Shown: one piece after another, positions 1-57,919 of the stretch
How the letters are laid out: each line of letters starts with the position of its first letter
Position numbering within the stretch: the stretch's first letter is position 1
NCBI GenBank assembly: GCA_000091205.1
Contig: AP006498.2
Reading direction: 5' to 3' (one strand)
DNA length: 64,000 bases
Origin: Cyanidioschyzon merolae
Lineage: Eukaryota
Program-made: the position numbers and the translations under genes
Notes under the pieces: generated by a model
What the model saw: only the letters and a program-made list of their open reading frames with translations
What the model was told of the DNA's origin: nothing
The model's database searches: none

Positions 1-1160
1 ACGGAACACCATGCCCTTGTTCGTTGAACAGACTGGAGCCTCTCCGAGCGTATCGTCGAGAAGAAACCCGTAATGATAGGATAGGGTACGATACTAGGCG
101 CGCAACCGGATGGTGCAGGCATCGACTGGTGCCTTCTGTACCCGTCAACGGTATGTTCCGAGCGACGAAGCGAGCATTCCCGTTTCACAGGCCGGCACGC
201 GCAGAGCAATGAAGTGTGGTGGACATACGGGAATCCCTGCTCAGAGACAAGCGCCACCGCTGGGAATTGCATATCGAGTCCATAGACAAGGAACACGCGA
301 ATGGCAAACGAAGCCAAGTATGTACCGACTGCCTGTGCATGAACGACGTCTACAACAGCAGAAAGCGTCGAAATCGGGACGTTCACGCTGCCGTCCGAAT
401 CCTTCGTGTGCTGTTAACGGCACATGAATGCAACGAGAGATCACCGTATGCATCGCCGAAGAGAAGCGCGAGCAAAATGAATCAGGTACAAAGAAGCCCT
501 TAAAGGCGGGTGCTGTCGACAGTGGAACGCTCCCCAAACCTAAGCGCGTACGTCCGAGCTAGCCAAGCAGACCTACCACATTGTAAGCTGACACGACTCG
601 AATAGAAAAGGCATCGGAAGTGTAAATTGACCAGGTGTGGCATCGCAGGAGCGCTGATCCCCAAGGCGAGAAGCGCGCGACGGCACCCCAGCATCTGTTC
701 TGAAGCGATACGCCTTGAACGCGCTACCAGGATATCAAACGTTATCTGCACGAAACTCGCAGCACCCAGCATACATTGTACTTTGTAACGTGCTGTGCTG
801 TGCTGTGCAACGCCCTGATCAGTATCCGGCGTGATCGCCTCTGGACTCCTCGAACAGCGCTGGAGGTGCAGTTTCCTCGAATCTTGGACCGCTGGAGCCG
901 CTCTTCTGGGCCGCTTGACTACGCTCACTGAGGCATTTGGGTGCACCTGGGTTCTGCGAGCGAAGACTACATGAAATCGGGCAGAAACGAACAGGGGGCA
1001 TGTTTCATCGCCTACGCTACAGCTTTCGCCTCTAACCCGCTGTGTGACTACTTGCCAGTCTACTCGACAAAGCTGGTTCCTCTTACCATAGAGACCTTCG
1101 GTAAAGAGCGCACTTGGCTCAGCCTACGTGGTTGAAGCAGTGCTGTAGCCGCGAGATAAG

Positions 1161-1400
1161 GCAGCTACAACCAAACTCGCATCGCTGAACTGCATTGCAT
1201 CCAAGAGGAAACCGTTGTTGTTTGCTTGCGAATAGGAGCGGCTTCATTCCAGTATAGACTTCTTACACTGTGACGAACAGGCAGCTACAACCAAACTCGC
1301 ATCTCTGAACTGCATTGAATCCAAGAGGAAACCGTTGTTGTTTGCTTGCGAATAGGAGCGGCTTCATTCCAGTTTAGACCTCTTACACTGTGACGAACAG
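1161..1400. repeat. Tandem direct repeat, 2 copies of a 120-bp unit (1161-1280, 1281-1400) with a few mismatches, upstream of the GT64 gene
   Basis: Directly visible: 'gcagctacaaccaaactcgcatc(g/t)ctgaactgcattg(c/a)atccaagaggaaaccgttgttgtttgcttgcgaataggagcggcttcattccagt(a/t)tagac(t/c)tcttacactgtgacgaacag' occurs twice back to back. Confidence 0.85.
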
Positions 1401-1917
1401 TGTGCCGACATTGCTGTATTGCGGGCACCAATCGATACAAAGCCTTGGATAGGATTCTGGTTCGCTTCTGAACTCGCAGCACCGATCGAAGACGAGTTAG
1501 CGGGCGATTCGTGACGTACAGCTCACGTATACCCATCACATACGACGTCTTGTTCGCTATTTCATTCCAAATCGAAAAGCGTGGCACGCAAACAGCTTCC
1601 AAGAGCGTCTGTGTCTCGTGATAGTGCTGCCGCGCTACCGACTACGATCGGATGTTGCGTCGGTTCGGCAAGGTGCTATTCTTTTCACCCAAGTCACTGT
1701 TTTTGGGCGTTGACATCGCGCATCAACACTGTCGTATCACCGTTGATCCCACGACCTAGGCAGGATGCGTCGTGGACGGCGACGTCGGCGGTGCACATCG
1801 AGAAGCTGGGCACCTGCTTCGAGCATGCGCCCCAGACGCATGGTAAGGCAGCAGGCTTTATGGCGATTTTGGCCTCCACAGCCAGTCTCTTGCGGAAATG
1901 CGTTGCGGTTCACATCC

Positions 1918-6727: not shown

Positions 6728-7216
6728 ATGCGTCTTTATTGGAGCAAGCTCGTTCAGCACCTTAGATCGCCTGGGGAACTTTGCTCGTTTCTTTCTAAAA
6801 ACGGCGGTCTACCGGCGCTCGTTCGTGAACCACCGTCGCTTGCCGACTCCGAGCCGTGCACCTGGCGTGGTGCCAAGAAGAAAGCTGGTGGCAGTTCACG
6901 TAACGGGCGTGACTCCATAGCCAAACGTCTGGGTGTCAAGACAGGAGAAGGCGTTCATGTTCGCATCGGTCAGGTGCTGGTGCGCCAACGAGGTACCCGC
7001 TGGCTCCCCGGCGAGCGCGTCGGGGTTGGTCGTGACGACACCATCTACGCCCTAGCGACGGGTCAAGTGAGGTTCAGTCGTCGTAGCCGTGACGGCCGCA
7101 CAGTTGTGAATGTGGTACCTGTGGCCGATGAACGCGATCTGGCTGCTAATTCGCGGTTCGCTACGAGTCAAACAACTGTCCTGGGGAGTCCGTCGACAGG
7201 TACCGCAACACAGTGA
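6728..7216 (+). CDS. Bacterial-type ribosomal protein L27 (bL27), nuclear-encoded organellar (mitochondrial/plastid) form
   Basis: Core '[63 protein letters not shown]' matches the bL27 signature (GGxxRNGRDSxxKRLGVK...RQRGT...GRDHTL). An N-terminal extension of about 55 aa is consistent with a targeting presequence. Confidence 0.7.
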
Positions 7217-8091: not shown

Positions 8092-8364
8092 ATGAATGTT
8101 CACCAATTGCTTGGGAAAGTCGCGTTCCCTCTGCTTGTGCTGGGCGCTGCAGCCTTTCTGGATTGCAGACCGCTGCCATACCAGTGTCGTGCTCAAGGTG
8201 CGAATCCAATCCAAACTCTCTCCTGGTCTCTGAGTTTTCTTGCATCGACATGCTGCAGCGTTTCAGTACAAGGCCCGTACTGTGCACTGAACGATGCCCT
8301 CGAACGCTCGCTCGACACAAAGCCGCTGCACGCTCCTGAAGAACAAGTCTCTCGCGCGTGTTGA
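8092..8364 (+). CDS. Hypothetical small secreted cysteine-containing protein (90 aa) with a predicted signal peptide
   Basis: Internal Met at 8092 of track ORF 7891..8364 starts a signal-peptide-like 'MNVHQLLGKVAFPLLVLGAAAFLDC', followed by a Cys-containing segment. I recognise no homology. It could be a chance ORF. Confidence 0.15.
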   Translation: MNVHQLLGKVAFPLLVLGAAAFLDCRPLPYQCRAQGANPIQTLSWSLSFLASTCCSVSVQGPYCALNDALERSLDTKPLHAPEEQVSRAC

Positions 8365-8761
8365 TCATGACGTTCTAGTTGCGATGCGTACAATGCATAT
8401 GCGCACTGTTACAGGTGGAGACACAATACCAGAGCAAGCTGCAGAGCTTGGATTGCCTCTCCATCCGAGGTTCAGTCAGCTTAGCGTGCACCGTCTGGTG
8501 CAGCGTTCTCCGTTCGACTGCCTTTTTCCCTATTTGTTTCGGAACGCATTCGTTCTCGTGATGTGTGGACGTCTGCCTGAGCGCACGGACGGCAAGCTTA
8601 CGGCATCGATTCATGTGCTCGGTGGACGCTCTCCTCGACAGGGCGGAAACGCAGGCTCTGCGCAGGATGGCACGTCGGATGCCACAGGCGACCTCCAAAG
8701 CGCACGACCTGACGGTCATTTCCATCGCAAATTATTCAAGAAAGTGACGAATATACGCTTC

Positions 8762-9397
8762 TTACCTCCGCACAATCGAGCCCGTTGTCGATCCGATCGC
8801 ACGCTCATAAAGTCCTGCCACGAGTCGTCCGCATGAGACATTCGAACGCTCATGCGCTCTCTCGACGAGCCATACAAAAGAGTTCCATCTGCTCGCTAGG
8901 GTGCAGAGAGCGTCGAGAAGAGCCCTGACGCGGTCATTCCTTTCGCTGGCATGCCTCGTTGCGCCCATGGTGTCCGACTCTGGATAGTACCGAGCTGCGG
9001 AAATTTTGAGCAGCTTCATCTGCGTTCCGCTAAGACCCGCATCTCCTTCCTCTTCATTTTGAGGTACCAATACAGCAGCGATCTTGCGCAACCCGGGATT
9101 CACGCTCACAAAAAAGTTTTTCTCTTCATCCACCCGAATGGATTGCACATGAACCATTTTACCCTGCTGGATCGTTTCCGGCACCGGCACTGCTCTTGTC
9201 CCGATCGCCAACGTTGCCACGCAGCAGCTCAAGGTATCCCGGGAAGCGGCTGAGCAAATCATCGATCCTGAGACTAGAACGTAACGCGTTGTGTGTCCCG
9301 AGCGTCCGACTCGTTGTCGCATGCAGATTTCGCTGAGAAAAAACTCTCGAGGAGCGTCGACAGCTGGCAGCTCTGCGTCCGAAACGCCCACGAACAC
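8762..9397 (-). CDS. Hypothetical protein (211 aa) of unknown function
   Basis: ORF in an otherwise gene-free interval. The segment 'FFVSVNPGLRKIAAVLV' is faintly reminiscent of an S1/OB-fold (eIF1A-domain-like) core. Not confidently assignable. Confidence 0.25.
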   Translation of the reverse strand: MFVGVSDAELPAVDAPREFFLSEICMRQRVGRSGHTTRYVLVSGSMICSAASRDTLSCCVATLAIGTRAVPVPETIQQGKMVHVQSIRVDEEKNFFVSVNPGLRKIAAVLVPQNEEEGDAGLSGTQMKLLKISAARYYPESDTMGATRHASERNDRVRALLDALCTLASRWNSFVWLVERAHERSNVSCGRLVAGLYERAIGSTTGSIVRR

Positions 9398-29970: not shown

Positions 29971-31542
29971 CTAGCGAGAAGCGCTACTGTCGCCCTTGGG
30001 GCAGTGAACGTTCTCCATGCTGCGCGCGAAAAACCACTCGGGTGGCGAGCGAAACGCATTGGCGATCCGACTGAAAGTAGATGCCTCCCGCTCGGGCTCT
30101 ACCAGGTCCGGCGACCCGCATTCCTCTTTGAAGGAGTCCAGTGGCGTTGCTGGAGCCGGCTCTAGACTTCCAGTGCCAGCTGGCGGGGTCAGATCACTGG
30201 GCGCTCTCGGTGAAGCGCCAGCCGGGGGCGACTCTTCCCAGGCGTTTCCCTCGAGCGAGAGCAGCCGCTGCATAGGTCGCTCATTCCAGCGGAGACATCG
30301 TGATACCGAACGAAACCAATCCTGTGTCTGGTCGTTATAATTCAACGTAGCTAGAGGCCAAGGTGATATCTGAACTCGTAAGTAGTCCCCGCGCTGGAGT
30401 TCCGTGCGCGCTCGTCCGTCGAAACTGACCCAGGCTGAGCCCCGCGCATGACGCGATACGCGAATTTTCAGCGTTACATAGTCTGGAAAGATCACCGGTC
30501 GAAATGACAGCGAGTGCGGACAAATCGGCGTCAGTAGAATAGCTGGTACCGAAGGATGCACCATCGAGCCGTTGCTCGACAACGAGTACGCTGTGGAACC
30601 CGTCGGCGTCGCCAGGATGACTCCGTCAGCTTGAATGCGCGTCACTGGAAAGTCATCGCAGTAACATTCCAGATTACTGAGAAACGGTGCTGGACCACGG
30701 TCGACGACGACTTCGTTCAATACAGTCTTTTGGATCAGGGGTCGCTGACCATCGCCATCCTTGTAGATAGCACAGTCCAGCCTCATTCGCAGCGTAACGG
30801 TGACGTCGCTGCCGCGCATTACCTCCCGAACGCATGACGGGAAATTGTTGAACGGAAAGGGTGTGAGAAAGCCCAAAGATCCTAGATGAAAAGGCATCAG
30901 TGGTGGTGCCGCTTTCGGAAAGAGCGATGCACAGGCGTGCAAAACGAGTCCATCACCACCCAAGCAGATGACCAGGTCGATGGGTGTCTGCGTCTGTTCT
31001 CGTGGAAAGTGCAACGTGCCCGGTAGCGTGTGCTCTGTTTCCGAGTAGAGGATGAGTTCTGGATACTCAGCTTCAAGCCATTGACATATTTTAACCGCGG
31101 AACTTCGAGCAGAATCAGAGTAGACGGTGAAGAGAATCAGAATGTGTCGCACCGGGCGAGACCAGCGCAAGTAAATGTTGCGATAGCTTGCCGGTAGCAA
31201 AGGACGGTGCAGAACGCGCCACTCAAGAGAGCATGCCGTTGGTTTCTGTGCGAGCTGCTCAAGAACCTCACTGGCTGTGTGTACGTGCGGCAAACGCGGT
31301 ACCTCTGGCGGCGATACCGCTCTCCCCTGTGCACAGGGGTTCACGGTGCGTCGCTCCTCGGGGGTCAGCGGGTCCGAGAACCGCTGCGTTTCCTCCTCTG
31401 CGGCTTCGAGTTGAATTCCGCTGAGTACGCTACGTAGCTGGGAGCACTGTTCGTCCTGTCGAACAGACAGACACCCACTCCCAAGAATAAGTTGTGCTGC
31501 GGACATGGAGCGCCGCCTCCGGCAGCACCGCAACCTGACCAA
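29971..31542 (-). CDS. NAD+ kinase (NADK, PpnK family)
   Basis: 'DLVICLGGDGLVLHA' (GGDG motif), 'NEVVVDRG', and 'DGVILATPTGSTAYSLSSNGSMVHPSVPAILLTPICPHSLSFRPVIFPD', the NAD-kinase signature block. Single ORF of 523 aa. Confidence 0.8.
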   Translation of the reverse strand: MVRLRCCRRRRSMSAAQLILGSGCLSVRQDEQCSQLRSVLSGIQLEAAEEETQRFSDPLTPEERRTVNPCAQGRAVSPPEVPRLPHVHTASEVLEQLAQKPTACSLEWRVLHRPLLPASYRNIYLRWSRPVRHILILFTVYSDSARSSAVKICQWLEAEYPELILYSETEHTLPGTLHFPREQTQTPIDLVICLGGDGLVLHACASLFPKAAPPLMPFHLGSLGFLTPFPFNNFPSCVREVMRGSDVTVTLRMRLDCAIYKDGDGQRPLIQKTVLNEVVVDRGPAPFLSNLECYCDDFPVTRIQADGVILATPTGSTAYSLSSNGSMVHPSVPAILLTPICPHSLSFRPVIFPDYVTLKIRVSRHARGSAWVSFDGRARTELQRGDYLRVQISPWPLATLNYNDQTQDWFRSVSRCLRWNERPMQRLLSLEGNAWEESPPAGASPRAPSDLTPPAGTGSLEPAPATPLDSFKEECGSPDLVEPEREASTFSRIANAFRSPPEWFFARSMENVHCPKGDSSASR

Positions 31543-31663
31543 GCGTCAAACGTCGCATAGGCAGTGTACAGGGGGGGCGAGCGGCGCCCCCCCGCCTCCC
31601 CCGCCCCAGACATCAATGCATACCCGCCCGCAGACGCCTTGCCGTTGTTATCGAGTGGCCACC

Positions 31664-31686
31664 TACTACGACTACGACTACGACTG
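31664..31686. repeat. (CTACGA)n hexanucleotide microsatellite, about 3.5 units, adjacent to a G/C homopolymer-rich stretch (31570-31600)
   Basis: 'tactacgactacgactacgactg' is visible. It lies just upstream (minus orientation) of the NADK start. Confidence 0.8.
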
Positions 31687-31765
31687 GGTTTACCTTCTCG
31701 TTACATAATGCAACCCTCAGAGGCTGCCTGATAAAATTGGTTAGCGTCAGCAGTGCGGGCCTCTT

Positions 31766-31848
31766 TTCGAGGACCGCACATCCCCTGATACTGATTGTGG
31801 CGTGAAAGTCTCGGTTCACGAACTCGATGCGTTTCTTGCTATCACTGG
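31766..31848 (-). repeat. Copy D of a short dispersed conserved element (48-nt near-identical core); partner at 56054-56138 on the opposite strand
   Basis: The reverse complement reads 'agcaagaaacgcatCgagttcgtgaaccgagactt..atcagtatcag', against 'agcaagaaacgcatGgagttcgtgaaccgagactt..atcagtatcag' at 56054. This is 47/48 identity in the core and about 80% over about 85 bp. It sits about 230-300 bp upstream of the NADK start codon. Confidence 0.6.
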
Positions 31849-32349
31849 TTGTACTTACTAATGCAAGTGGCCCTCGAGGTTTCGCCCCCCGTTCCATTTG
31901 CTCTTGTGTCACCGCTCTGTGCTTTTCTATATCCTCAGGGGTCCGCTGGCGCTTTCCCATCTCGACCCTCTGAAGTCTACACCCGAGCTCACGGTGCATC
32001 CAGGACGTTCGGAACTCATCTATCGGCATTGTGGAAAAACGGTGCGTGCGTTCCGTGTATGCTCGTGTCGACGGCGCTGGTGCGCTCGCTTTTGTGGACG
32101 CCCTGCTCCGTACGCTACTACAAGCTTCTGACTCTTGTCTTCCTTGAGAGCGCTGAACTCATTGAAGTTGTTGAATGCACACGGCTTCCCCTGGTGCATT
32201 TTCGTACGCTGACGAACACAACGGGGCGGCTTGGTGTGCTCGTTCCACAGCTCCTCGTCATGAGCAGCGCGAATTCTCGTGAATGAAAGGAAAGCTTGAA
32301 AGTGCGCTCCTCGGCTCGTCACGCTGCTGATCGCTTCCTGGGGGCACGT

Positions 32350-33869
32350 TCACTCATGAGCCCCACTTCTGACTTTTTTCCTCGCATTCATTATTCCCGA
32401 TTCTCGGTAGTATCTCGCTCCTGAGAACTTTGAAAGACACATGTCTTTCTGACATAAGTTGCCGTCGATACCATCCTTCGCACACTTCGGAGCAACGATG
32501 GTCATGATATTCGTGTTGCCGGGCTCAAGGCCGGAGACATTTTCATTCTCCTGCAATTCCTGCGTCTCAGGGTGCGCCCTATTGGTTTCTTTGTGCATCG
32601 CCGAGGGCGCAGCCGACGACACAATGGGACGATCCACCTGCAACCGCCGATACTGGACACATATGGATACCCCATCGGTTTCGATCAATCCAGTGAATAG
32701 CTGTTGTTTGCTCGCTTTGAGACGTTTGAAATCGAAGATACTCTTCCAGTACGTCTCCCGGTTTTCACCGGAGAATTCCTCCCTGCTAACATCGAACTCC
32801 GGACAGATCTCCTTCATGATACCGTGAAGGATTCTGGAGCCGATACTCACAAAATGTGACTTGATGTTGCATATAGGAACCACGTTGAAGCGCTTGCCCA
32901 TTAGGAAAGCCTTCCGTCTCTCCCACTCTTCATTGTTTTCCTCACTCAGTTTCATCTCCGCCTTGCGTTCGAGTTCTCGGTCCAAAAACACGAAAGATCG
33001 CAGGATGAGGCGATGGTATCCTTCCTCATCTTTTTCAACTCTGATATACTTTCTGCTGGACTCGCCAGCCCCAGGACTGCACAGTGCTCTTGTATAGCCG
33101 CACGGGTTACAGAAGCTTCTTTCGTTCTCCTGCGTGACGCTTTCTTGTCGACAAATTCGATCTCCTGCTCATCCCGGGAATCGTTCGTAATGGCATCGAT
33201 GATGGCCCACATCCCTGTGCGAGACAGGCCCGGGCGCATTGCAAAGACGGAGCGTATCATGAAGCGCTTGAGGTTTATGTTCATACGATTCTTCAGGTTT
33301 GTGAGATACTTTATTGCCCTGTCTTCGTACATGCGCCAGTGTCCCCTGTATCGAGTAACGTTGAAGCGGTAGTTGGCGAAGCTTTCGTGGAGGGCGTGCT
33401 CCCGCTCATTCCTCGTCGGCGTTTCCCCTGTGCAAACCGCCAGGTGGCGGATGAAGGTCTTGTTGAAAAATTCTTCCCGACACTCGAATGGTTCAATTTG
33501 CGTCACGTCGTGAAACATCTACGTCACCAATTTCATTACTCCTGAAAAAGCCTTCATAATACTCATGGCGTACGACTCGACACGGTTTCTGATGGCCTTT
33601 TGCAACTTTTGCTCGTACGGATCCTTGATAAATCGAAGAGGACAGGCTTTCACCACCGTCTCGCCGTAGTGTAGCCTTTCGTGTAGCTTTTGGCTCCCGG
33701 CCTCCTGCCTCTGATTCTTCGTCCTGTTCCCCTGGACTCGGCACCGTTTTTCGTTTACTTCCGGCAGCCGGCGCCACTGCGCCTCCAGGATCTTCCACTT
33801 CCTTTTCCATAACTTTCCTTTTTCATTTTTCATTCGAAAAAGAACACACTTTGAACGCTTCTCCGACAA
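32350..33869 (-). pseudogene. Degenerate about 510-aa coding sequence split over three minus-strand ORFs (33869-33519, then an in-frame stop, 33518-32952, then a +1/-1 frameshift, 32991-32350) inside a low-GC island. Probable mobile-element / transposase-like relic
   Basis: ORF C ends with a stop at 33519-33521 and ORF B begins at 33518 in the same frame. ORF A overlaps B by 40 nt in another frame. The island at 32300-34200 is visibly AT-richer (about 45% GC) than its surroundings. The product is Lys/Arg/Glu-rich with a segment 'LFTGLIETDGVSICVQYRR' reminiscent of the 'xTDGxxxF' catalytic region of KDZ / Tnp2 (CACTA)-type transposases. That family assignment is speculative. Confidence 0.35.
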
Positions 33870-35090
33870 ACAGCGAAAAGCACTTGAATATACTTACTTG
33901 AGGGCTGAAACACAATTGAACTGAAAAACTATTCTTTGCGATGCCTTCAACGCAAATACAACTTGTACTCTACAGCTAGATCATATAGATCAGGCTCGCG
34001 TTTCCCTTCAACGGCGAGGTGCGCGTCGTATCTCGTGCCTGCCACATCTCCCAGGTGCGAGTATCGAGTACACTACGTAGAACAAAGAACAGAGACTAAT
34101 CACTTACTAGCAACGAAATTACGATTTCTTTTCCCCTCTACGGTATACGTAAAAATGGAGGACAGGTTTCCGTATTTTCGAAGCTTTACCTTATGGGTGA
34201 AATTTCCCGCGAGCCGGAAGAGTCTCCCAGACTTGTGCTTCATGCCGCCAAGTGGCAGGTGCTTGATTGAGATCCGAGCAACTTGTGCTCAACGCAGTTT
34301 CTTCTGGGACTTGGAGCGGGCATGCTGCGTCTGGGCGTCGCCTGGCCCTAGTGGACCCCTAGTACATCGCTTCGCGCTGCCGCTTTTCGTGGGTCTGTCT
34401 GCGCAGCTTGCAGGCGCTCAGAATAATTAAGAGCCTCAACTACGTCTCACCTGAAGCATTCCTCGAGCCGACGCCCTCAGTGGTATGGCAAAGCTGTTCT
34501 GTCTCTGTGCAGCATCTGGTTCAGCGGTGTGAGCGCTACGGCGGGTGCTCACGGCAGGTAATCAGCGATCAATAGCACGTGCGAAACGACCAGTATTTCC
34601 TTGAGGAAGTACGGGTAATGGAACTTGGAGGTATGGTGCATCATGGTACACAATTACGTGAATCTTCATACCCACCCCGAAATCTGGGATCCAATGTCAA
34701 TGTAAACGTTTTGTCATCGAAGAAAACATCGACGCACCACACCATCAGGAAACCTGCACGCACGCATTCCAGTGCAGATCGCCGAAAGCGACGCGATCAC
34801 GAAACGACAGTGGCCGAAGCCTGGATCGCGCTGCCACCGCAGAGGCGCACGGAGAGCCTGCCACGTGTCCATCGTGTTTGATCATGCAAACGCGCCGCGA
34901 TGCTTCGTTGCGCGGCGGGTGCGCTTCCAGGGCGGACACCGCCCACTGTGATCGCCGCCTAGTGAGGGCGGCGCTGACGTTGACGCGCAACGCGTTTGAG
35001 AAATGAGGTTCTTTTGTCGGTGCACGGCACGCGAGCGCTGGTGAACGGTCAACCGAACGCTGTGCACGCCCTGTTGCCGTTATTTTCCCT

Positions 35091-36284
35091 ATGAACTCGT
35101 CTCGAGTATTCGAGGAGAACGTGACTCTCGAGAAACAGGTTGGCATCTGGTCGCGTCTAGGGCTGTCCACGGAGAACGCTGAGCTTGCGGCCTCAAAGCA
35201 AATTCGGCGGAAACACCCGCACGGCAGTCGACGGGCCCGGCTCCTTCGTGAGCACCCCGAGGTCTCCAAGCTCTATGGTACCAACAAAAAGTCTGCGTTA
35301 TACGTCGTTCTGCTTGTTGCGCTGCAGCTTGGCGTGGCTGTGTTGCTTGGCACAAGTGGCCGCACCTCCTGGGTCAGCGCAGCGGTGCTCGCGTATGTTT
35401 TTGGCGCTGTGGTGGACCACGCTCAGTGGGTGCTCATTCACGACGCGACACATAACCTCATTTTAGAGTCAGTTGTGCTCAATCGTCTAGTACTTTGTAT
35501 AGCGAATACGATTCACGTGCTTCCCTCGGGGATGATGTTCCGATACTATCATATTCTGCACCATATCGAGCTCAACCGTGTGCAGCGGGACCCCGATGTG
35601 CCCGCCGCGTGGGAGGCGCGCCTCGTAGGCAACTCGAGCTGGCGCAAGGCTCTGTGGCTGGCGCTGTTTTTCGTTTTCCAGAGTTTGCGTCTGGTTTCTT
35701 ACAGCCACCGCATACCGAACATGCGCGAGTACGTCTGGTTTGGCATCAACACAGTGGTGAACTTGGTAGCCATGGTTGGCGTTTGGCTTCTAGGCGGTTG
35801 GATCAGTATTTTTTACTTGACCCTGTCCAGCATCTTCAGTGTTGGGTTACATCCGTTAGGCGCTCGTTGGATTCAAGAGCACTATCCGACGCTACCGTTC
35901 CAGAGCACCTACTCGTACTACGGTTGGGCGAACAGGGTCGCGTTCAACATTGGTTTCCACAACGAGCATCACGATCTGCCGAGTGTGCCCTGGAACAAGC
36001 TGCCAAAGTTGAAGAAAATGGCTCCTGAGTTTTACGATACCTTGTTCGCCTATCGCTCGTACCGCCAGCTCTTGAAAGAGTTTATTCTGGATCCTCGATG
36101 GTCATTGCTGCGACGATGGGAGGCGGACCTGGCCGCTGCACAGAAAGAGCGTCTCGAGCAGGACGCGGGCGACGCTGGCAAGGAACCCGCGACGGTACCC
36201 CCGTCAACTGAAGAGTGCGAGTGCGCCGCCGACGCGCCAGCCAAGCCGCCCGTTGACGACTGGACAGACATGGCTTTACGGTGA
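35091..36284 (+). CDS. DEGS: Sphingolipid delta-4 desaturase (dihydroceramide desaturase DES1/DEGS family)
   Basis: N-terminal Lipid_DES region 'FEENVTLEKQ...HPHGSRRARLLREHPEVSKLYGTNKKS'. His boxes 'HDATHN', 'HILHH', and C-terminal 'HNEHHDLPSVPWNKLPKL' match DES1 ('HNEHHDFPNIPGKSLP'). Multiple TM segments. Confidence 0.85.
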   Translation: MNSSRVFEENVTLEKQVGIWSRLGLSTENAELAASKQIRRKHPHGSRRARLLREHPEVSKLYGTNKKSALYVVLLVALQLGVAVLLGTSGRTSWVSAAVLAYVFGAVVDHAQWVLIHDATHNLILESVVLNRLVLCIANTIHVLPSGMMFRYYHILHHIELNRVQRDPDVPAAWEARLVGNSSWRKALWLALFFVFQSLRLVSYSHRIPNMREYVWFGINTVVNLVAMVGVWLLGGWISIFYLTLSSIFSVGLHPLGARWIQEHYPTLPFQSTYSYYGWANRVAFNIGFHNEHHDLPSVPWNKLPKLKKMAPEFYDTLFAYRSYRQLLKEFILDPRWSLLRRWEADLAAAQKERLEQDAGDAGKEPATVPPSTEECECAADAPAKPPVDDWTDMALR

Positions 36285-39343: not shown

Positions 39344-40948
39344 CTATCGGAGAACTGCGTAACATCCGAAAACTTTCGATGTAAAGAACAGACCTTGCTC
39401 CGAACTCGGACGCAAGTCGCTGCCTTGCTCGCGTGGTCCGACAATCATAATCTGTCGAATATGCGAGTCTCGCCCGTTCTGATGGTTTCCATATATGACG
39501 ATCTGAAGATGAAAAACCTCCAACGCGGACTCTAGTGGAGGCTTTCGCATCATCGTGCGACTCAGTTCACTGGTGTTCATCGAGTTCTCTGTTCGCGAAT
39601 GAGGAAGGGTGCTGTCCCTGCGGTCTAGGTCAACAGATGTATGCATGGGCTCGTCAGGTGGAGGCATTTCGAAACTGTCCTCCGTACGGAGTCTAGGTTC
39701 GACGCGCGCGTCCACCGCGGTCACCAGCTGCATCGCTGGGCTCGCTGCTGGCGATGTCGACACAACCAGTCCGGATTCATCGAATTCCAGGACAGCGGCC
39801 GGCGGTGGCAGTGGAATCGTGATCCATCCGCGTGGCTCATGAAGCTGGCAAAAAACGGTTTCGCGAAGGTCGTGGAAATCGGTGCCTGTCCAGACGCCGA
39901 TTCGATTCGGTGTATAGCTCTCGTCCAATTGATAGTTCAGAAACATCCGTATTTGCGAGACTTTGGTTTTCTGACGAAATTGAATTGAGATCTTATGCGG
40001 CTGCGCACCATCGGTCTGGAAAAAGGTCTGCACATTGCCGTCACGCATCAGCTCGATGCCGTTCCCTTGTTTCGCAGATGAAACAGACCAAACCGCCTCG
40101 TCGCCAAGCTCTCGCAGCGCCTCAAGCTGCGTCTCGCTCTTATCGCTTTCGTTTGTAAGGCGCCGCAGTAGTTGGGGGATGCGGCGATCCCACAGCAGGT
40201 CCGGGTATCGCTGCTGGAGTACGCGCGGAAGGCCGAGTCGACCGGGGCGGGTCGGTGGCGAGGCTATCGATGTTTCGCGCCGTCGTTCTGTGTGCGGCGG
40301 CATGGAGCATCCGCTGGGACTCGAATCAGGTGTAGACACCAGCGATGCAGGCAGCGTTCCGTGAACAGGCCTCGAGCGGCTGCCAGCAAGCCGATCGATG
40401 CCTCCGCTCGCTGGCGTCGTCTCTGGTGCCGGGAATAGCAGTCTTCGCCGGCCACGTGGCGGAGGTTCCTCAGCACGGGTTCCCTCAAAGAACTCGCGAG
40501 AGGGCCTCAGGCGTTCCATAAACGTTTCTAAGTAGCTATGGAGGGAAGTTTCGCTACCGAAGTGTGCCCTGGTCGTGCTGGTATTGGCTCCGATGAGCGT
40601 CTCTGCCGCGGGGTGTGTGTGAGCGGGATCGACTCGCACACAGCGTCGTTGCCGCCAGATCGTCGGGGCGCGATCGCGCACCGACGTCCGCAACGCACGG
40701 CGCGATGGGGTTGCTTCGTCGGGCGCCACGATGCTCGCGGCAACCTCTGGCGTCGTGCTTTCGCGGGTGCTTGTGCTCCATGCTGAGCTGCTCTGTGTTG
40801 ATGGATGAGCCAGGAGGTCGAGCGGCGATACCCAGCAATGCGAGCGCGCGCGCTGGTAGCAGCTTGGGGTCGGCGTTGAGCTCTGATGCGCAGGGCGCTG
40901 CAGGGCTTCACTGCGGCAGCGTGCGTGCTTCTGCGATTGCTTGGACAC
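39344..40948 (-). CDS. APC10/DOC1-domain protein (anaphase-promoting complex subunit 10-like) with a long Ser/Pro/Arg-rich N-terminal extension
   Basis: 'LRELGDEAVWSVSSAKQGNGIELMRDGNVQTFFQTDGAQPHKISIQFRQKTKVSQIRMFLNYQLDESYTPNRIGVWTGTDFHDLRE' matches the APC10 DOC domain ('[50 protein letters not shown]...DESYTPSKISV'). The true N-terminus may be internal. Confidence 0.65.
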   Translation of the reverse strand: MSKQSQKHARCRSEALQRPAHQSSTPTPSCYQRARSHCWVSPLDLLAHPSTQSSSAWSTSTRESTTPEVAASIVAPDEATPSRRALRTSVRDRAPTIWRQRRCVRVDPAHTHPAAETLIGANTSTTRAHFGSETSLHSYLETFMERLRPSREFFEGTRAEEPPPRGRRRLLFPAPETTPASGGIDRLAGSRSRPVHGTLPASLVSTPDSSPSGCSMPPHTERRRETSIASPPTRPGRLGLPRVLQQRYPDLLWDRRIPQLLRRLTNESDKSETQLEALRELGDEAVWSVSSAKQGNGIELMRDGNVQTFFQTDGAQPHKISIQFRQKTKVSQIRMFLNYQLDESYTPNRIGVWTGTDFHDLRETVFCQLHEPRGWITIPLPPPAAVLEFDESGLVVSTSPAASPAMQLVTAVDARVEPRLRTEDSFEMPPPDEPMHTSVDLDRRDSTLPHSRTENSMNTSELSRTMMRKPPLESALEVFHLQIVIYGNHQNGRDSHIRQIMIVGPREQGSDLRPSSEQGLFFTSKVFGCYAVLR

Positions 40949-41168
40949 ACTGGGGTGATCAGTGCGTGTTTTGGGCTTGTGTGCTAGAACCAGATATTAC
41001 CACGACGTTGGATTCTGAGATTCGGACTATATGGCATAGGAGCGCTCGTGTGGGTTTTGTATCGGATGGGATTTGACGTCACGGGAATTTTACGGATGTC
41101 TCGTGGTCAACGGGTGCGCGAATAGACAAGTCTATGGTGCTGGAAGCGGGCATGGCGTGAAGATATTC

Positions 41169-41192
41169 AAAAAATGGACGGAACTGGAAAAA
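41169..41192 (-). terminator. Pol III-type T-run terminators (T5 at 41188-41192 and T6 at 41169-41174 on the minus strand) immediately downstream of the tRNA 5'-half segment
   Basis: The plus strand shows 'ggaaaaag' and 'tcaaaaaatgg'. On the minus strand these are runs of 5 or more T, within 10-35 nt of the end of the tRNA-like segment. Confidence 0.4.
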
Positions 41193-41202
41193 GATTTGAT
41201 TT

Positions 41203-41316
41203 GGAATCGAACCCACGGCCATTGGATTAAAAGTCCAATGCTCTACCGCTGAGCTACGTTGGCTGCGCACGGCGCGTCGAATGCTCAATTCGCGGTGCGA
41301 TCGCCAACGGTGGGGA
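41203..41316 (-). tRNA. trnK-UUU: Circularly permuted tRNA-Lys (anticodon UUU) gene. The 3' half (T-stem 3' strand + acceptor 3' strand, 41303-41315) lies upstream of the 5' part (acceptor 5' strand through T-loop, 41203-41263), separated by 39 nt
   Basis: Minus-strand read of 41263..41203: 'GCCAACG TA GCTC AGCGGTA GAGC A TTGGA CTTTTAA TCCAA TGGCC GTGGG TTCGATT CC'. This is a perfect cloverleaf through the T-loop with anticodon TTT, but no complementary 3' strands follow. Upstream on the same strand, 41315..41303 reads 'CCCCAC CGTTGGC', which pairs with T-stem 'GTGGG' and acceptor 'GCCAACG', followed by discriminator G. Confidence 0.6.
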
Positions 41317-41345
41317 ATTCGCAGCAATGTACATTGTTCAAAATT

Positions 41346-41356
41346 GATATATATAG
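41346..41356 (-). promoter_or_regulatory. TATA-like element ('gatatatatag') about 30-40 bp upstream of the permuted tRNA 3' half; candidate Pol III upstream promoter
   Basis: Position and sequence only. Upstream TATA elements are typical of permuted/split tRNA genes lacking an intact internal A/B box arrangement. Confidence 0.3.
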
Positions 41357-41996
41357 ACATGGTTTGAAGCGTGCAGAGAATCGCGGCAACGTGTTGACGC
41401 TGGTGCGTGCACGGCACTCGCATCAGATTCCAGTGGAACGTTGAACTGCTCGTTCTGTTCCTGAATCTCTTTTTTTTGTATATTTAGTCTTTATTTTCAA
41501 TGCGCAGCAATAAAGGCTTACGGATTCACGGGTAATTTTTGGGTGCTCGGTTTTCGTTTTTGCGTAGCTCATTCGAATCTCACGTCGATGGCCTGCGTTG
41601 CGTCACTGGAATCCAGCGCATTCGCGACGCCCTCAAGCGGCGGTTCCGCGCCTAACACATATCATCACCATCATCATCCAGTTCCTATGGGTAAGCTTGG
41701 ACGCTTCTGATTTGCTTATGTGTAGCATGCGCACATCATGTATGCTGCATGTTTTCCATCATTCTGTTTCATGGCGACTCGTAGGTGCAGTAACTCGCAT
41801 CGCTAATTTGATGGGATATAAACGCGACGTCGTTTCTTGATGACTTGTTCACAAGCTCAAGTCGGAGGTCCACTAAAGTCGTCACATAAAATAAACGTTT
41901 TTCAAAGAAACAAAGTCTCCGCTCTCTACCGCCATCGGCCAAACGTTATTCGTGAGCACCTTGATGCCCTTTGAGTTATGCTCTGAGAGACTCGTA

Positions 41997-42580
41997 TCCC
42001 TTCCATTCGGACGAAAGAGGCTCTTGCATTGGGAACTGAGTCATCGCAGCGATCGCTTCTCGTGGGGAATGCGTCATCGCTTTGCAGGACGGGGCACGAG
42101 ACGGATCGAAATTGCTCGGACGCTGCTCCATTTTAGATTTCGCTTCAAGTACTTGCTCCATCATAGGCAATATCGCTTTTCAGAAATCCTCCATGGAATG
42201 GGACAGCGTTCGTTTGGACGCGCAACGCAAAGCGTACTCGTCAATGGGATCGCCGAGAACAAGCCCGCGACCAAAGGGTACGGCACCGATCGTGGAAACG
42301 GAGGAACAGCACCGCGGCCAGCCTTGTGTACCCGTCAACAGCACGCATCGGTCGAGGAAGCAAGTCTTCACGTGCATCAGAGCGGTGCTCGGATGACGAG
42401 AAGAAAGGATTGTAGCCGACGTCTGAGAACATCTGATCGCAGCCAAGTGGCACCGATGCGAGCGGCGCATGACGGCTGTATTCAAAGAATATGAAACTGG
42501 CGAGCGGAGTGCAGATTGCAACCACAGTCTGTGCATGAAATGCTTGAACAGTTGTCGAAAGCAGCAATACCTGGAGTGGA
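41997..42580. repeat. Copy B of the diverged dispersed paralogous segment (partner 28350-29040)
   Basis: See copy A. In B a single minus-strand ORF (42180..42830, 216 aa) runs through the region, ending '...GAVPFGRGLVLGDPIDEYALRCASKRTLSHSMEDF'. The homologous A frame reads '...APGAIPSDHGLLLGNLIGKYSLRCTCMRTLFHSTEDS'. Confidence 0.55.
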
Positions 42581-43402
42581 ACGCTGATATCAGCATCATT
42601 CGGCTGTAGGCAACGAAGTTGAAGGGCATGGGGAGCCCCGCGTATTTAAAGTCTGAAACCTGGACGACGAAAAGGTACAAGTGGCACGAAAATCTCGCAA
42701 AAGAAATCCATGGAGGAACAGTGGGGCATTTCGCGTTTGTTCGCTTTTTGATCGTACGTAAGTGTGGAAACCCAACCGCCTTGCCGACAACTACGTAGTC
42801 GCGATACGCCGTCAACTGTAAACGGGCCAACGGTATTGAAACGGAGTCTGCTGATAACGAGTACCGCAGCCGTCCTCAACACGCTCAGACGCTCCCAGGA
42901 CTGACCCGAGAGGCGCCCCAGCGATGCCGCGCTCAGGGTTTGTAGTGCCGAACATCGCACGGGCGCCGAACAAGCCTTTACCAGTTTAGACGATTTTCGC
43001 CACTGTATGTCCATTCGATGAATTTTCACAACATCTCTGACCTGATATAAGCCTCCAAATAAAACAACTCGACACTAGTGGCGACAACGGATGGCACCAA
43101 CTAACCATATCCTCTATATGGACTGGAGCTCAGCAAAGTTATCGCTCCGAAATACACCTCTCCAATAGCTAAGATAAAGCATTTCTACCTAGCCTATAGC
43201 ATTCCCCAACGAGTACGTGTCCTACTGGTGTCCGAAGAGCTCCCAAATACCTGGCTTCGTACTAGATGCTCTGGCTTCTGCTTCGGATTCGCAGACTCGC
43301 CGATCGTTGCCGAGCCTGTGGGGCCTCCGGTCGATGCCATCGAAAAGAAATTTCGATTCGCTTCCTCGGTAGCGTATTGCCACTTTTCGAGAAACGCTTT
43401 GC

Positions 43403-52966: not shown

Positions 52967-54646
52967 CTAAAAATTTGCCTCATCTTCCAGGATCGACACG
53001 AGCTCTTCCACATTCGCAACGGCTTGAATATGACAACGATCCCCGTAATATTGCTCAATCTCCTGTAATAACTGACGGCTCCAGTGATCGTAGATAAAGT
53101 TGATGGCGATCCCTTTGCGTCCAAAACGCCCGGTCCGCCCTACGCGATGCAGGTAGGTTTCGGGATCAGCGTGCCCTGTTCGATCCCGCGGCAGGTCGTA
53201 ATTCATCACCACCGTCGTTGCGAGCACGTCGACGCCACGCGACAACACGGAAGTGCTGATCAGGATACGGTCGGTGCCGGCACGGAAGGAGTCGATGACG
53301 CGGTCGCGCTCCTCGGGGGTCATGTCGCCGCCGTGCAGCAGCGCTACCGAGTGGCCGTCGGCGCGCATGCGGCGTGCCAACTCGGATGCATCACGCCTTC
53401 GCTCCACGAAAATAATGGATTGACCAATTCTTAGGGATCCGTAAATATCGCTGAGTACCTGGAAACGGCCTTCGGATGAACCACAATCGATATAGAACTG
53501 TTTCACGTTATCCAGACTGAGTTGCTCTCTCTTGACAGTGATTTGATTCGCATTTGGCACCACTTTGAGGGCAAAGTCGCGCACATGATCCGGATAGGTT
53601 GCGGAAAACAAAAGCGTTTGCACGTCCGGTGAAAGCAGTTTCTTGATGCGCAGCGTTTGGTCACCCATACCCTGCGTGTCAATCATTTCATCTGCTTCGT
53701 CCAGCACGAGAATACGAATCGTCTTGCCGGAGAACACGCGGTGCCGCAAGAGATCCATGACCCGGCCCGGAGTGCCGACGATGATGTGATCACGAATGCT
53801 CGTGACGCGGGGCTGGCTGCGCTCTTCCTCTCCCTGCTTGACAGCCAGGTAGACACGGCAGCCTGTGTACTTGCCCAGGTTCATGATAACGTCTCGAATC
53901 TGCCGGGCGAGTTCACGCGTCGGCACCAAACAAAGCGCCTGGGGGACGTCTTTCGTCGTGTCTACTCGAGAAAGCATTCCGAGGACAAAGCAAGCCGTCT
54001 TACCCGAGCCATTGTGTGCTTGTGCGATGAGGTTGCGTGGAGGCGCTGCTAGGATCATCGGCAATGAAACTGCTTGAACTTTGCTCGGTTTGCTAAACTT
54101 CATGGAATAGACCCCCTGAAGGAGTTCAACAGGGAGACCAAGCTCTTCGAACGTGGCCGCCGACGTGTACAACGCACGGTCGTCGGAGAGCGTGACCTCG
54201 ACCTGATCGGCGCCCTCGACCTCGTTGAGTCCGCGTAGAGGCAGAGGCTCATCTACGTCGTCGTCCTCGTTGCCTTTGTCATCTTCATTATTGTTGCCTG
54301 CACCGTGAGCGCTGCTGGTCTTGCATGCGTCTTCGGAAGCCGCAGTTGTCGGCGCACTGGTTTTGCGTGCCGCGGAAGCGCCCGTGCTCTCGTGACCTCG
54401 ACCAAGCCTCGGGAGCCGCTCCAGCTGCGAAATAACTTGGTCTTCCTGCTTAGATGCTTCCTCGTTGGACTCTGCTTGAGAGGAAGGAGACGACGTTTCC
54501 GCAGCTGCTGCTGGTACTGCTGCCTCCGCGCTGCTCCCTGGTGGAGACTCCGTGCGCTTCACAGCTGTGGCCGAGGCCGCGGCCGGTGCCGCTCCGTTCC
54601 GAGTTGTCACATCTGAAGAGCTCATCTGTACAACTCTATCTGCCAT
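52967..54646 (-). CDS. DEAD-box ATP-dependent RNA helicase, DDX19/Dbp5-like (mRNA export helicase)
   Basis: 'FEELGLPVELLQGVYSMKFSKPSKVQAVSLPMILAAPPRNLIAQAHNGSGKTACFVLGMLSRV' gives the Q-motif and motif I in the Dbp5 'PPQNLIAQSQSGTGKTAAF' context. It also carries 'PTRELARQI', 'VLDEADEMI' (DEAD variant), 'SAT', and 'HRVGRTGRFGRKGIAINFI'. The track ORF extends to 55030; the Met at 54646 ('MADRVVQMSSSDV') is the more plausible start. Confidence 0.85.
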   Translation of the reverse strand: MADRVVQMSSSDVTTRNGAAPAAASATAVKRTESPPGSSAEAAVPAAAAETSSPSSQAESNEEASKQEDQVISQLERLPRLGRGHESTGASAARKTSAPTTAASEDACKTSSAHGAGNNNEDDKGNEDDDVDEPLPLRGLNEVEGADQVEVTLSDDRALYTSAATFEELGLPVELLQGVYSMKFSKPSKVQAVSLPMILAAPPRNLIAQAHNGSGKTACFVLGMLSRVDTTKDVPQALCLVPTRELARQIRDVIMNLGKYTGCRVYLAVKQGEEERSQPRVTSIRDHIIVGTPGRVMDLLRHRVFSGKTIRILVLDEADEMIDTQGMGDQTLRIKKLLSPDVQTLLFSATYPDHVRDFALKVVPNANQITVKREQLSLDNVKQFYIDCGSSEGRFQVLSDIYGSLRIGQSIIFVERRRDASELARRMRADGHSVALLHGGDMTPEERDRVIDSFRAGTDRILISTSVLSRGVDVLATTVVMNYDLPRDRTGHADPETYLHRVGRTGRFGRKGIAINFIYDHWSRQLLQEIEQYYGDRCHIQAVANVEELVSILEDEANF

Positions 54647-56053
54647 GACAACGAGACTATCCAGACAGCTACGCTTTCTTTCCACCGCCTGGAGAGTGCT
54701 CGAAAACAGGGCGACGAGGTAGTGGGGGCAGCGAATGCGAGCGCCGCCACAGACGCCACCAACATTGGATACTATTGGCAAGCTTTGTCCATAATCATGG
54801 CATGCGATTCGATTCTGGTCCACCGCCCCTGCATGCCATCGAACGCTTTTTCGCAGAACAGAGCAGGAGATGGAATTTTCTGTGTAATGTACTGAATTGA
54901 TCCCAGACGCATAGCGTATAGTATATATTCTGCAATGAACAGCGCATGACGGAATGCATGCCTCATTCAGGCCAGTCGTACAACTGGACTCGAATGGTTG
55001 AGGAACACTGAAAGAGTTACGTAGATGCACTTTGCGCTAGAAACCGATATTCTCAACGGCTGCTTGCAGTCCATGGCAAAAACGACGTGTTAGTCACTTT
55101 ACGGAAACCGGAATCGACGATAGTAGCCACCGCGGGCATCTCTGCCTCTCAATAGCTTGTTCGTCTGGCCCAGAATACGTTGGGAAACAGTCGCAAAGAT
55201 GCCCTAGTTCTTTCAGGGCCGTCTTCCACCGAAACCGCAACCACAGCTTTCTTGGAACTCGACGATCGGTATGAAGCGCAAGGACGTCGATTTTTGTTCT
55301 CAATCGATGAGACTTGCTTCGGACGAAACGGTCGGAGTGTATATGGGTATTGGCGGGGCATAGTGCCTGTTGCATGTATGATCCAACTCGGAGAGAACGA
55401 ATATATCATCATCCGTTCCAGCTCCAGTGGATACCTATGGCTGCCTCAGTCTCGCTCGCAGAGAAGGCTCATCCAGCAGCATCCACTCTGTCGAATCATT
55501 GAAGACCTTTCCCCATCTGACGCCTAGCGAAGCCCGCCTGCTGGACGACGGGATATTCCACTATTCCCGTTGCTTTCGAGCGTAGGCGGATTCTATCCGG
55601 GTAGAGCTGCTTTTCATTCCTTCGTAATCTCCATGATTCGCCCAGATTCAGGCAGCGTTTTCTATTGTGAAACGTAATGCTCGCTCTGCTGGGCACATCG
55701 CTAAAGCGTTCGGCACACGTTTACAAAACGGCACTTTTCGTCGTTCTTCCGCAAGTCAATCTCCCTACGGGAAGGTTCTCACCCAGAGGCATCAGGGAGT
55801 GCACGCATTTTCAAAACTAAGAAATCTAAAGGAAAGTTTCGGGCATGGAAGTCAGGGATCCCGGAAGGCCGTTATCGCCGGCTGCCGAAAAAACTCCACA
55901 ATCCTCCTCTCGCCCACGGTGGGGCGAAGAAGAGCAAGTCACGAAGAGAAAGAACAGGGAAAATAGAGGAGAAAAAGTGTTTTCCTGATGAGACGATGAC
56001 GGTACTGTAGTGACACCGAGGGCACGAGTTCTGACAATCCTTGCAAAGGTGAA

Positions 56054-56138
56054 TTCCATCAGAAGCAAGAAACGCATGGAGTTCGTGAACCGAGACTTCA
56101 GCGCGGCCATCAGTATCAGACGGCATGTGGTACTGAAG
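56054..56138 (+). repeat. Copy C of the short dispersed conserved element (partner 31766-31848, inverted)
   Basis: See copy D. It lies in the 2.9-kb ORF-poor spacer between the DDX19-like and spermidine synthase genes. Confidence 0.6.
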
Positions 56139-57919
56139 CCGACACCCGAGGAGCTGAAGCCATCCAACGTCACGGGGGAGGCTCTCAGGCTCGAAGTGTG
56201 CCCGGATAACCTGGAACCGATAGCAGTGGGCCGGTCGAAAAGGCAGGGAGGCGTCTGCAAGTGCATATATATGTACCCTCCATAGTCGCGAAACAATGCT
56301 GATTTTATTGATCACATGTGGCGTAAAAAATCGTTTCCTGTTCACGAGGAGATTTCCATAGCCTCTCTCCTGATCATTTATTGGTTAATCATCGGGAGTC
56401 TTCAGCGGTTGAGGATAATCCCCACAATATGTAGTATACGATGTCATCAAAATTTGCTCGACATGAACCTGCGAGACATTCCGGAACCTCGACAGCCTTC
56501 CCAGACTTGAATCATAGCGCTCAAGTCTCGGTGTAGAAAGTGCTCGCGAGTGTATAACTATTGGTGTTATCACACCACAGCAAGCTTGTCAGCTTGGATT
56601 GCCTGGAAATCTGGCGTTCGCTCACCTTTTACTACATCACCTCGTGCATCCGCCTCTGTCTCACTTTCTTTTCTGCAAGTTTCAGCATGCACCTGAGCTC
56701 TTCATGCGAGCAAGTCTTACCGATCTCATTGATGGGAATCGAACACAGTCGACTCCTCGACTCGCTACATGCTGCCGTCCAGGGAGCAGGAGTGCAGTTC
56801 GTGCACGCTACAGCACATCCGCTGTTGTAGGTTGACATCAAACGACGCGAGTGACGAGTCATTTTCTTTTGTTTCTCACAGAGCAAGCTCGCGAGAGCAC
56901 GCTGCTTGCCTCCGTACGATTGCAGTGGTTGGTGACCTCGGCGCAATGCTCAGCCTGCACCCGAAGCACATTTTTACCATCCATAGGACGGTACTAGGTA
57001 CCGCCACAGCGTAAGAAAAATCAGCCAGTTCGCCTTTGGTGCTCGGACTTGTGCGTGACGAGCATCGAATGATGGTAGGAGCACTCGCTCAATCTGTCAA
57101 TAGTCCTGATCCTCAACGGAAACATGTGCACTCTCAAGGACAGGATCCCAAAGGCGCAATTACGTGGAGCTTTGCAACAGCAATTCGAGATTCCACGTTC
57201 GGTATGGTTTTTCGAGAGAGGCTTGCAAAATCTCTTATCCTCACAGCTCCGCGACCTGAATTCGTACAAGTTGTGCAGGCTATCTTGCTAGTTACAAAGG
57301 CGACAAAAGCGCCTCTCACTGAAGAGAAGCCGGTTGCGATATAGGATACATACTCGCGTCTCTCGTGGTGCTATGCGGTTGTTAATTTGGACCAGAGGAG
57401 CACGGGCCCAATGGCTCAGGTGCTCGGCGCTTATCGTGACGCTAGACTCGCTCGGACAATTACGCGCTTTTCCATTTCGTCATGGCGTTTGATCCTTAGC
57501 GCGTACGGAGCCGGCGAGCGACCGTTTCCGCATTCGCCATGTTCTCGGTTGTGGTTATCGCTGACTTGAATCCCGTTCAGAAACAGATCCAAGTCCATGG
57601 GTGTACGGCTCACAAAAGCACCGGTTCCAGCGATCGATCGACCGGCTGACGCAGCATCTATTCCGAATACGGCTCTGTCGACATACGGCATAAGCGGCTC
57701 TGTGCGGCAGCTACACGAGCACCCTGTAGTTCACTTGCAGGCGAATGCGATGGATCCCTCGAACACGCTCAAGACTGCCATACGTTCTGGAAGGATGACC
57801 GGTGTGCATACGGCAGCGTGGAACCTTGCGCTTGTGGCCTGCCATGGAGCGCGACACCGATGCAGCTGCCGCGGACGCCTACAACACCATCCCAGGTGAG
57901 AAGCCTCTGAACATAACGC

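Follow-up and report, generated by a model that had tools for sequence, protein, structure and literature searches.

A relic of the Fanzor1-carrying mobile element CMe-1A between the NADK and DES1 genes of Cyanidioschyzon merolae

Introduction

What kind of DNA separates the genes for NAD kinase (NADK) and sphingolipid delta-4 desaturase (DES1) in Cyanidioschyzon merolae? We addressed this question in a stretch of 64,000 nucleotides from contig AP006498.2 (assembly GCA_000091205.1), which is called the window in the following. A preliminary description, made from the letters of the window alone, had noted a low-GC block between the two genes. On its minus strand, abutting open reading frames (ORFs) could be joined conceptually into one basic protein. 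The block was read as a decaying transposon or horizontally acquired fragment, with a segment resembling KDZ/Tnp2 transposases; programmed recoding was named as the alternative. We find that the block between NADK and DES1 is almost certainly a fixed, non-functional copy of CMe-1A, a Fanzor1-carrying mobile element of C. merolae.

CMe-1A has been known since 2013, and so have the Fanzor1 protein, the copy number and the level of decay of this family in C. merolae. Bao and Jurka (Mob DNA 4:12; PMC3627910) described CMe-1A as one Fanzor1 family of this species, with a ~3-kb consensus and about 150 copies; each copy matches the consensus at ~80% identity, and some are still intact. The element has no terminal inverted repeats (TIRs), and target-site duplications (TSDs) were not assigned. 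The 5' part of the consensus (1-635) is 95% identical to a separate element, TE-N2_CMe (PMC3627910). Characterised Fanzors are DNA endonucleases with a single RuvC site, guided by an omega-RNA (fRNA) derived from the element's 3' end (PMC10530073, PMC10432273). Their RuvC-II glutamate has moved by about 45 residues into a DE[FY]xTS motif (PMC10530073). C. merolae is not mentioned in the Fanzor papers of Saito 2023 and Jiang 2023, and the 2013 paper is the sole one we found that joins Cyanidioschyzon and Fanzor and has Fanzor as its subject.

Results

The block aligns end to end with the CMe-1A consensus

The 3169-bp CMe-1A consensus (Additional file 2) and the 734-aa CMe-1 protein were taken from the supplementary files of PMC3627910. 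The window was compared with the consensus by blastn and by free-end global alignment, and with the protein by tblastn. Consensus positions 1-3169 aligned end to end, at 81.9% identity and with 25 small indels, to the minus strand from 34719 to about 31529. The copy is 3191 bp long and extends on both sides beyond 32300-34200, the limits first proposed. Its 5' end is sharp at position 34719, where the first 24 nt of the consensus are identical. Coordinates of all features are collected in Table 1.

No TIR or TSD pairs the element ends; a repeat search that included internal repeats gave only short matches at chance level. The flanks, GTTTTCTT before the boundary and GTGCTGCC after it, are unrelated to each other. 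Self-blastn of the region against the whole window returned only a 66-nt match, to a fragment at 56.1 kb. Like the published family, the copy lies in C. merolae, has a single-ORF layout and the same 5' terminus, and lacks TIRs and a detectable TSD. Its length and divergence also fit the ~150 published copies. It differs in being non-coding, in carrying strain-polymorphic simple repeats and in its 3' ~270 nt, which are far more degraded; with only 61-74% identity to the consensus they are the most degraded part of the copy.

The host was identified as C. merolae 10D by three ORFs in the window (DES1, Aha1-like and HIRA), which are exactly identical to BAM81910.1, BAM81913.1 and BAM81905.1, respectively.

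Table 1. Features of the NADK-DES1 region (window coordinates)
Feature	Position	Strand	Evidence
NAD kinase (NADK), flanking host gene	29971..31506	-	PF01513/PF20143 gene call on 99%-identical contig L001; ORF in window
Whole CMe-1A copy, consensus 1-3169	31529..34719	-	alignment to published consensus, 81.9% identity
5' non-coding module, consensus 1-635	34085..34719	-	82.6% identity to consensus
Rest of 5' non-coding leader, consensus 636-905 (includes the lowest-GC stretch)	33811..34084	-	86.2% identity to consensus
Fanzor1 (CMe-1) pseudogene, 734 consensus codons over three frames	31613..33810	-	tblastn high-scoring segments in three frames; three-frame translation
5-nt deletion (~33724), from the true start frame into the frame of ORF 33869-33519	33720..33728	-	indel list against consensus
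Nonsense GAG->TAG	33519..33521	-	three-frame translation, consensus comparison; unchanged in strains L001-L003
1-nt deletion (~33036), frameshift between 188-aa and 213-aa ORFs	33030..33040	-	indel list; tblastn frame switch ~33030-33051
Conserved Fanzor1 beta-hairpin upstream of RuvC-I, LFTGLIETDGVSICVQYRR	32644..32700	-	alignment A1, GtFz1 alignment, model
RuvC-I GLEPGNTNI (consensus GADPGNTNI)	32506..32532	-	consensus projection
Compensated -1 (~32378) / +1 (~32344) pair around two overlapping TGA codons	32344..32378	-	indel list
7-nt deletion (~32101), frameshift right after LVVAYGAG into the last ORF	32095..32105	-	indel list; tblastn frame switch 32098
IDEFRTS, relocated RuvC-II Glu (codon 32017-32015), retained	32003..32023	-	translation; E569 invariant in A1
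RuvC-III NRDFHATISI (consensus NRDFNAAINI), Asp codon 31810-31808 kept	31787..31816	-	translation, consensus projection
Degraded 3' tail with C-rich tract 31585-31607 and (ACTACG)n microsatellite 31665-31685	31585..31685	-	Tandem Repeats Finder (TRF), strain indels
DES1 (sphingolipid delta-4 desaturase), flanking host gene	35091..36284	+	exact identity to C. merolae 10D BAM81910.1

The low GC content is the element's own

The drop in GC content had been estimated by eye as about 45% against about 58% around it. In a sliding-window profile, 32300-34200 has 49.4% GC, compared with 55.3% for the whole window and 56-57% for both flanking genes. The drop is therefore real, and this segment has the lowest value of all 1900-bp windows (0.16th percentile), but the contrast had been overstated. 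Only a local stretch, 33700-34150, goes down to 44-45%. The CMe-1A consensus has 52.3% GC, and GC->AT and AT->GC changes occurred at equal rates in the window copy. The dip is thus inherited and not mutational: it is the element's own composition, set against host genes of 56-57% GC. AT-biased mutation after insertion was considered as a cause of the dip and is ruled out by the same equal rates and the 52% GC consensus.

A composition that deviates from its surroundings would also fit a recently acquired foreign fragment, for example a viral one, in place of a resident repeat family, and large DNA viruses are known to carry Fanzor genes (PMC3627910). We consider this origin very unlikely. The divergence of the copy from its family consensus amounts to 18%, and several strains of ~99% identity carry it as a fixed copy with the same lesions. 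The family is multicopy, and three further Fanzor1-type relics lie in the same window. The idea of foreign DNA without additional copies does not agree with these relics or with the family of about 150 copies (PMC3627910).

The family protein has the motifs and predicted fold of Fanzor1

A search of a protein collection with the conceptually joined protein retrieved 43 relatives, all metagenomic, the best with E=1e-216 and 57% identity. Many or most of them carry a precomputed PF26935/DUF8286 label. Neither Pfam-A (in a copy that did not include PF26935) nor NCBIfam gave an informative hit for the ORF pieces, the joined protein or the relatives. In an alignment of ten full-length relatives (alignment A1), the residues D398, E569 and D636 are invariant. 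The same holds for T362, D363 and G364 and for R635, N638 and A640. The window copy keeps NRD of RuvC-III, with the neighbouring conserved N, A and N mutated.

A sequence-profile search of the PDB gave a sole match, Guillardia theta Fanzor1 (GtFz1), spanning the ETDGV motif and the DPG motif that follows it. This match was marginal (E=0.066), and we therefore turned to structure prediction and fold search, for which the intact relative P0031 was used in place of the relic. The AlphaFold2 model of P0031 had a predicted local distance difference test score (pLDDT) of 80.5 and a predicted template modelling score (pTM) of 0.74. Its top seven PDB matches were the Parasitella, Spizellomyces and Guillardia Fanzor1 proteins PpFz, SpuFz and GtFz (Foldseek E 8e-15 to 7e-14, template modelling (TM) score 0.44-0.58). 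Below these came Cas12f, other Cas12 types, Fanzor2 and ISDra2 TnpB. In the model, the segment corresponding to LFTGLIETDGVSICVQYRR forms strands 354-362 and 366-374. An exhaustive profile search found 5287 cluster representatives at E<=0.001, and the clade is therefore large and widespread. As judged from motifs and model, the family protein is a predicted TnpB-derived RuvC nuclease and not a DDE transposase.

The proposal that the locus is a relic of a KDZ/Tnp2 (CACTA/Kyakuja-Dileera-Zisupton type) DDE transposase had been built on a short resemblance around ETDGV in a protein that is basic and transposon-borne. No ORF piece matched Transposase_21, KDZ or any DDE family in Pfam or NCBIfam at E<=1. 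The TDG motif is instead conserved in Fanzor1: ETDGV aligns with VVTDGVSISFQ of GtFz1, and the motif recurs in the published Fanzor1 set. In addition, the intact relative folds like Fanzor1, Cas12f and TnpB, and the DNA of the locus is 82% identical to a published Fanzor1 element. A KDZ/Tnp2 origin is therefore extremely improbable.

The likeness to characterised Fanzor1 nucleases, namely SpuFz1 (8GKH, 9CEU), GtFz1 (9CER) and PpFz (9CF0/9CF1), lies in the fold of the intact relative (E~1e-14, TM 0.44-0.58), in the DPG, DE[FY]xTS and RDxNAA motifs and in the relocated RuvC-II glutamate. The sequences themselves share only 12-16% identity, the window copy is a pseudogene, and a nuclease activity of CMe-1 would follow by analogy. 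In the CMe-1 clade an obvious C4 zinc finger is also missing from the interval between DEFRTS and NRD, which reads only YTHHELGC...KC. Neither the consensus nor the relatives have a second CxxC pair between RuvC-II and RuvC-III (YTHHELGCTLQRVEMEKCQR...), and distant members have no Cys pairs. The C4 zinc finger motif of Bao and Jurka is thus not found across the CMe-1 clade, beyond the window copy alone.

TnpB of IS200/IS605 and IS607 and Cas12f are distant homologues with a RuvC core in common, and a distant family member (P0043) gave a weak Pfam match to Cas12f1-like_TNB (E 0.027). CMe-1 differs from these bacterial proteins by its eukaryotic host, by a long N-terminal extension with basic stretches resembling nuclear localisation signals, by the lack of a TnpA partner and by the rearranged position of the RuvC-II glutamate. 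The Pfam entry DUF8286 (PF26935), with which the 213-aa ORF of the locus in a 99%-identical contig and most relatives are labelled, denotes a domain of unknown function and accounts for part of the protein only.

The Fanzor1 gene is broken by at least six lesions

The consensus ORF occupies positions 906-3110, and all 734 codons are represented in the window copy. When its codons are projected one by one onto the consensus frame, the corrected translation shares 68% of its residues with the published CMe-1 protein. The joined protein of about 510 aa had been too short. The reading chain goes on downstream through 32322-32020 and then 32029-31613 (three-frame translation), which adds about 250 C-terminal codons (32322-31613). 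IDEFRTS and NRDFHATISI lie in the last of these pieces; together with GLEPGNTNI further upstream they follow the D...E...D pattern known from TnpB/Fanzor RuvC nucleases. The N-terminus had to be revised as well. Coding starts at ATG 33810, in another frame than the first ORF of the earlier join, so that the first ~48 residues of the joined protein were out of frame.

The ORF junctions that had been described from the sequence are correct. ORF 33869-33519 closes with TAG (33521-33519), and the next ATG, at 33518, follows in the same frame; this is a single in-frame stop. ORF 32991-32350 overlaps the preceding ORF by 40 nt in a different frame, in line with the -1 change at ~33036. Further downstream, TGA 32356-32354 (GGA->TGA) lies in the consensus frame and TGA 32352-32350 in the uncorrected frame. 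In total, comparison with the consensus reveals three uncompensated frameshifts (-5, -1 and -7), one compensated ±1 pair and two nonsense codons. Moreover, the catalytic Asp of RuvC-I, corresponding to the invariant D398, has been lost by a GAC->GAG change at 32526-32524 (D->E). Because the ORF is broken by three uncompensated frameshifts and two nonsense codons, the locus is the relic of a Fanzor1 gene and not a Fanzor1 nuclease.

Since the host is a eukaryote, the interruptions might be thought to be introns of a host gene and not mutations. There is practically no chance of this. The frame changes are gaps of 1, 5 and 7 nt against an uninterrupted consensus ORF, not insertions of intron length, and the protein family is transposon-borne, with ~150 copies reported in the genome (PMC3627910).

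The relic evolves like non-coding DNA

The locus was compared with that of three environmental strains (L001-L003), represented by ~99%-identical JGI contigs that carry it as well. Contig Ga0078972_1000573 is 99.4% identical to the window. Substitutions between strains amounted to 0.73-1.29% in the relic, 0.00-0.75% in the flanking coding sequences (0.15% pooled, L001) and 1.35-1.62% in spacer DNA. For L001, the difference between the relic and the pooled coding sequences gave an odds ratio of 6.1 (Fisher test, P=2e-8). The ORF part of the relic (0.77-1.05%) and the non-coding part of the element (0.66-1.54%) are alike between strains. Every lesion is common to all three environmental strains. 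There is thus no current constraint on the relic, which changes at roughly the rate of non-coding spacer, about six times that of the flanking genes.

These data bear on the proposal that a live gene is maintained here by programmed stop readthrough and ribosomal frameshifting. The adjoining ORFs can indeed be joined conceptually, and the ratio of nonsynonymous to synonymous changes (dN/dS) against the consensus is below 1. Expression would nevertheless take frameshifts of three sizes (-5, -1 and -7) and two readthroughs, and would yield a protein with the RuvC-I Asp replaced. The ORF diverges as much as the element's non-coding part and several times more than neighbouring genes. Apparently, no 10D gene is annotated here, as the accessions BAM81905-81913 seem to be accounted for by other ORFs. 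With at least six independent lesions, a catalytic change and a divergence between strains like that of non-coding DNA, the evidence points to a dead gene, and recoding has next to no likelihood.

In summary, the CMe-1A alignment and the lesions bear out the suggestion that a mobile-element copy of distinct base composition is decaying within a closely packed array of genes. GC content was not uniform, the protein was not that of an intron-containing host gene, and the locus was not a single-copy one with intact orthologues.

The 3' end of the element and the NADK start

The 3'-terminal 258 nt of the consensus have a better predicted fold than shuffled sequences (z=-2.9, 1 of 200). The counterpart in the window copy folds no better than shuffles (z=-1.0), and an Rfam scan of 31300-35100 gave no match at E<=1. 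Since the 3' part is the most degraded of the copy and folds no better than shuffles, the guide scaffold has probably been lost from the window copy.

The NADK ATG (31506) and the DES1 ATG (35091) are separated by a divergent intergenic region of 3.58 kb, of which the CMe-1A copy occupies 3.19 kb. The distance from DES1 to the 5' end of the element is 371 bp, while only 22-60 bp separate the NADK ATG from its 3' end. For these reasons it is possible, although we regard it as rather unlikely, that the transcription start and core promoter of NADK lie inside old Fanzor1 element DNA, a passive exaptation of the element's 3' end as promoter or 5'UTR. Passive DNA upstream of the NADK start codon is the only plausible residual role of the copy.

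The C-rich tract and the (ACTACG)n microsatellite listed in Table 1 lie 80-180 bp ahead of the NADK ATG, and in the environmental strains L001 and L002 the lengths of both differ from those in 10D. If the exaptation were true, these strain-polymorphic repeats could modulate NADK expression.

Further Fanzor1 relics and near-intact relatives

Three other sites in the window showed similarity to Fanzor1. At 8258-9397 (-) we found a much older Fanzor1-like fossil of the C-terminal half, with 27-30% amino acid identity to CMe-1 and P0031. Several stops interrupt it, and its catalytic motifs have been altered to VNPG, RALRQTS and HRN*N. This fossil is far more diverged than the CMe family of 2013, and its sequence suggests an additional, extinct Fanzor1 lineage. 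A second old fossil, at 56449-57018 (-), has 31-37% amino acid identity to CMe-1/P0031 from YGGKQRA to LLWC; stops are present and DEFRTS is degraded to INEIGKT. Adjacent to it, in head-to-head orientation and within a low-GC zone (54600-57500), lies a CMe-1A-related fragment at 55808-55893 and 56010-56262 (+). It retains only consensus 880-960 and 2890-3088, with 68-77% nucleotide and 50% amino acid identity, NRDFSAAISIRR included. By its sequence, this fragment looks like an internally deleted derivative of CMe-1A.

Two more regions, 4550-6900 and 40850-43350, contain 1900-bp windows down to about 50% GC, similar to the CMe-1A locus. The latter sits between ANAPC10-like and Aha1-like genes and contains a 216-aa ORF (42180-42830, -). 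Tblastn with the Fanzor family gave no match in either region.

Outside the window, an environmental Cyanidioschyzon contig (L005:2675-5399; JGI 3300050362, Ga0504780_000149) carries a near-intact CMe-1 ORF of 752 aa (P0001). In this ORF the segment corresponding to consensus 2117-2195, a repeated acidic linker that directly precedes RuvC-I, is present in three additional tandem copies, and a CAA->TAA change introduces a stop 34 codons ahead of the normal end. P0014 has still more linker repeats. Most of the 5' TE-N2_CMe-like module has been lost or rearranged at the L005 locus. At L005:4376-5399 and L006:3621-4647, which cover the 3' kilobase of the element, identity to the consensus reaches 89%, compared with 82-85% over the rest. 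Similarity between copies seemingly runs ~15-25 nt beyond the published 3' end (GGTGGTGGTG-like), and the Repbase 3' terminus of CMe-1A may therefore be slightly short.

Discussion

Our analysis identifies the DNA between NADK and DES1 as an old CMe-1A copy, inactive as a nuclease. Intact family members would encode a Fanzor1 of ~734 aa, a nuclease guided by an omega-RNA from the 3' end of the element. The window copy was inserted long ago, as its 18% nucleotide divergence from the family consensus indicates, and has decayed since. It supplies no nuclease.

Some points weigh against this account. The 3' end of the copy is not sharp and was placed within 31529-31570. The omega-RNA-guided mechanism would apply to CMe-1 by homology to characterised Fanzor1 proteins. 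Furthermore, comparison with the consensus gives a dN/dS of 0.50 and a surplus of changes at third codon positions (125/107/167, P=8e-4). Part of the divergence was for this reason accrued under selection, before the death of the copy, and the 18% is not purely decay after insertion. Such constrained divergence would be expected if the copy stems from a diverged master lineage.

The result is mainly of use for annotation, in which the locus is best masked as a CMe-1A / Fanzor1 pseudogene and treated neither as a new transposase nor as a case of recoding. It also shows that the compact genome of C. merolae is dense in Fanzor1 fossils of several ages: the 64 kb studied here hold four relics, and two of these have diverged far more than the one family catalogued in 2013. 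At the same time, near-intact CMe-1 ORFs persist in natural Cyanidioschyzon populations, and these are candidate Fanzor1 nucleases from a thermo-acidophile.

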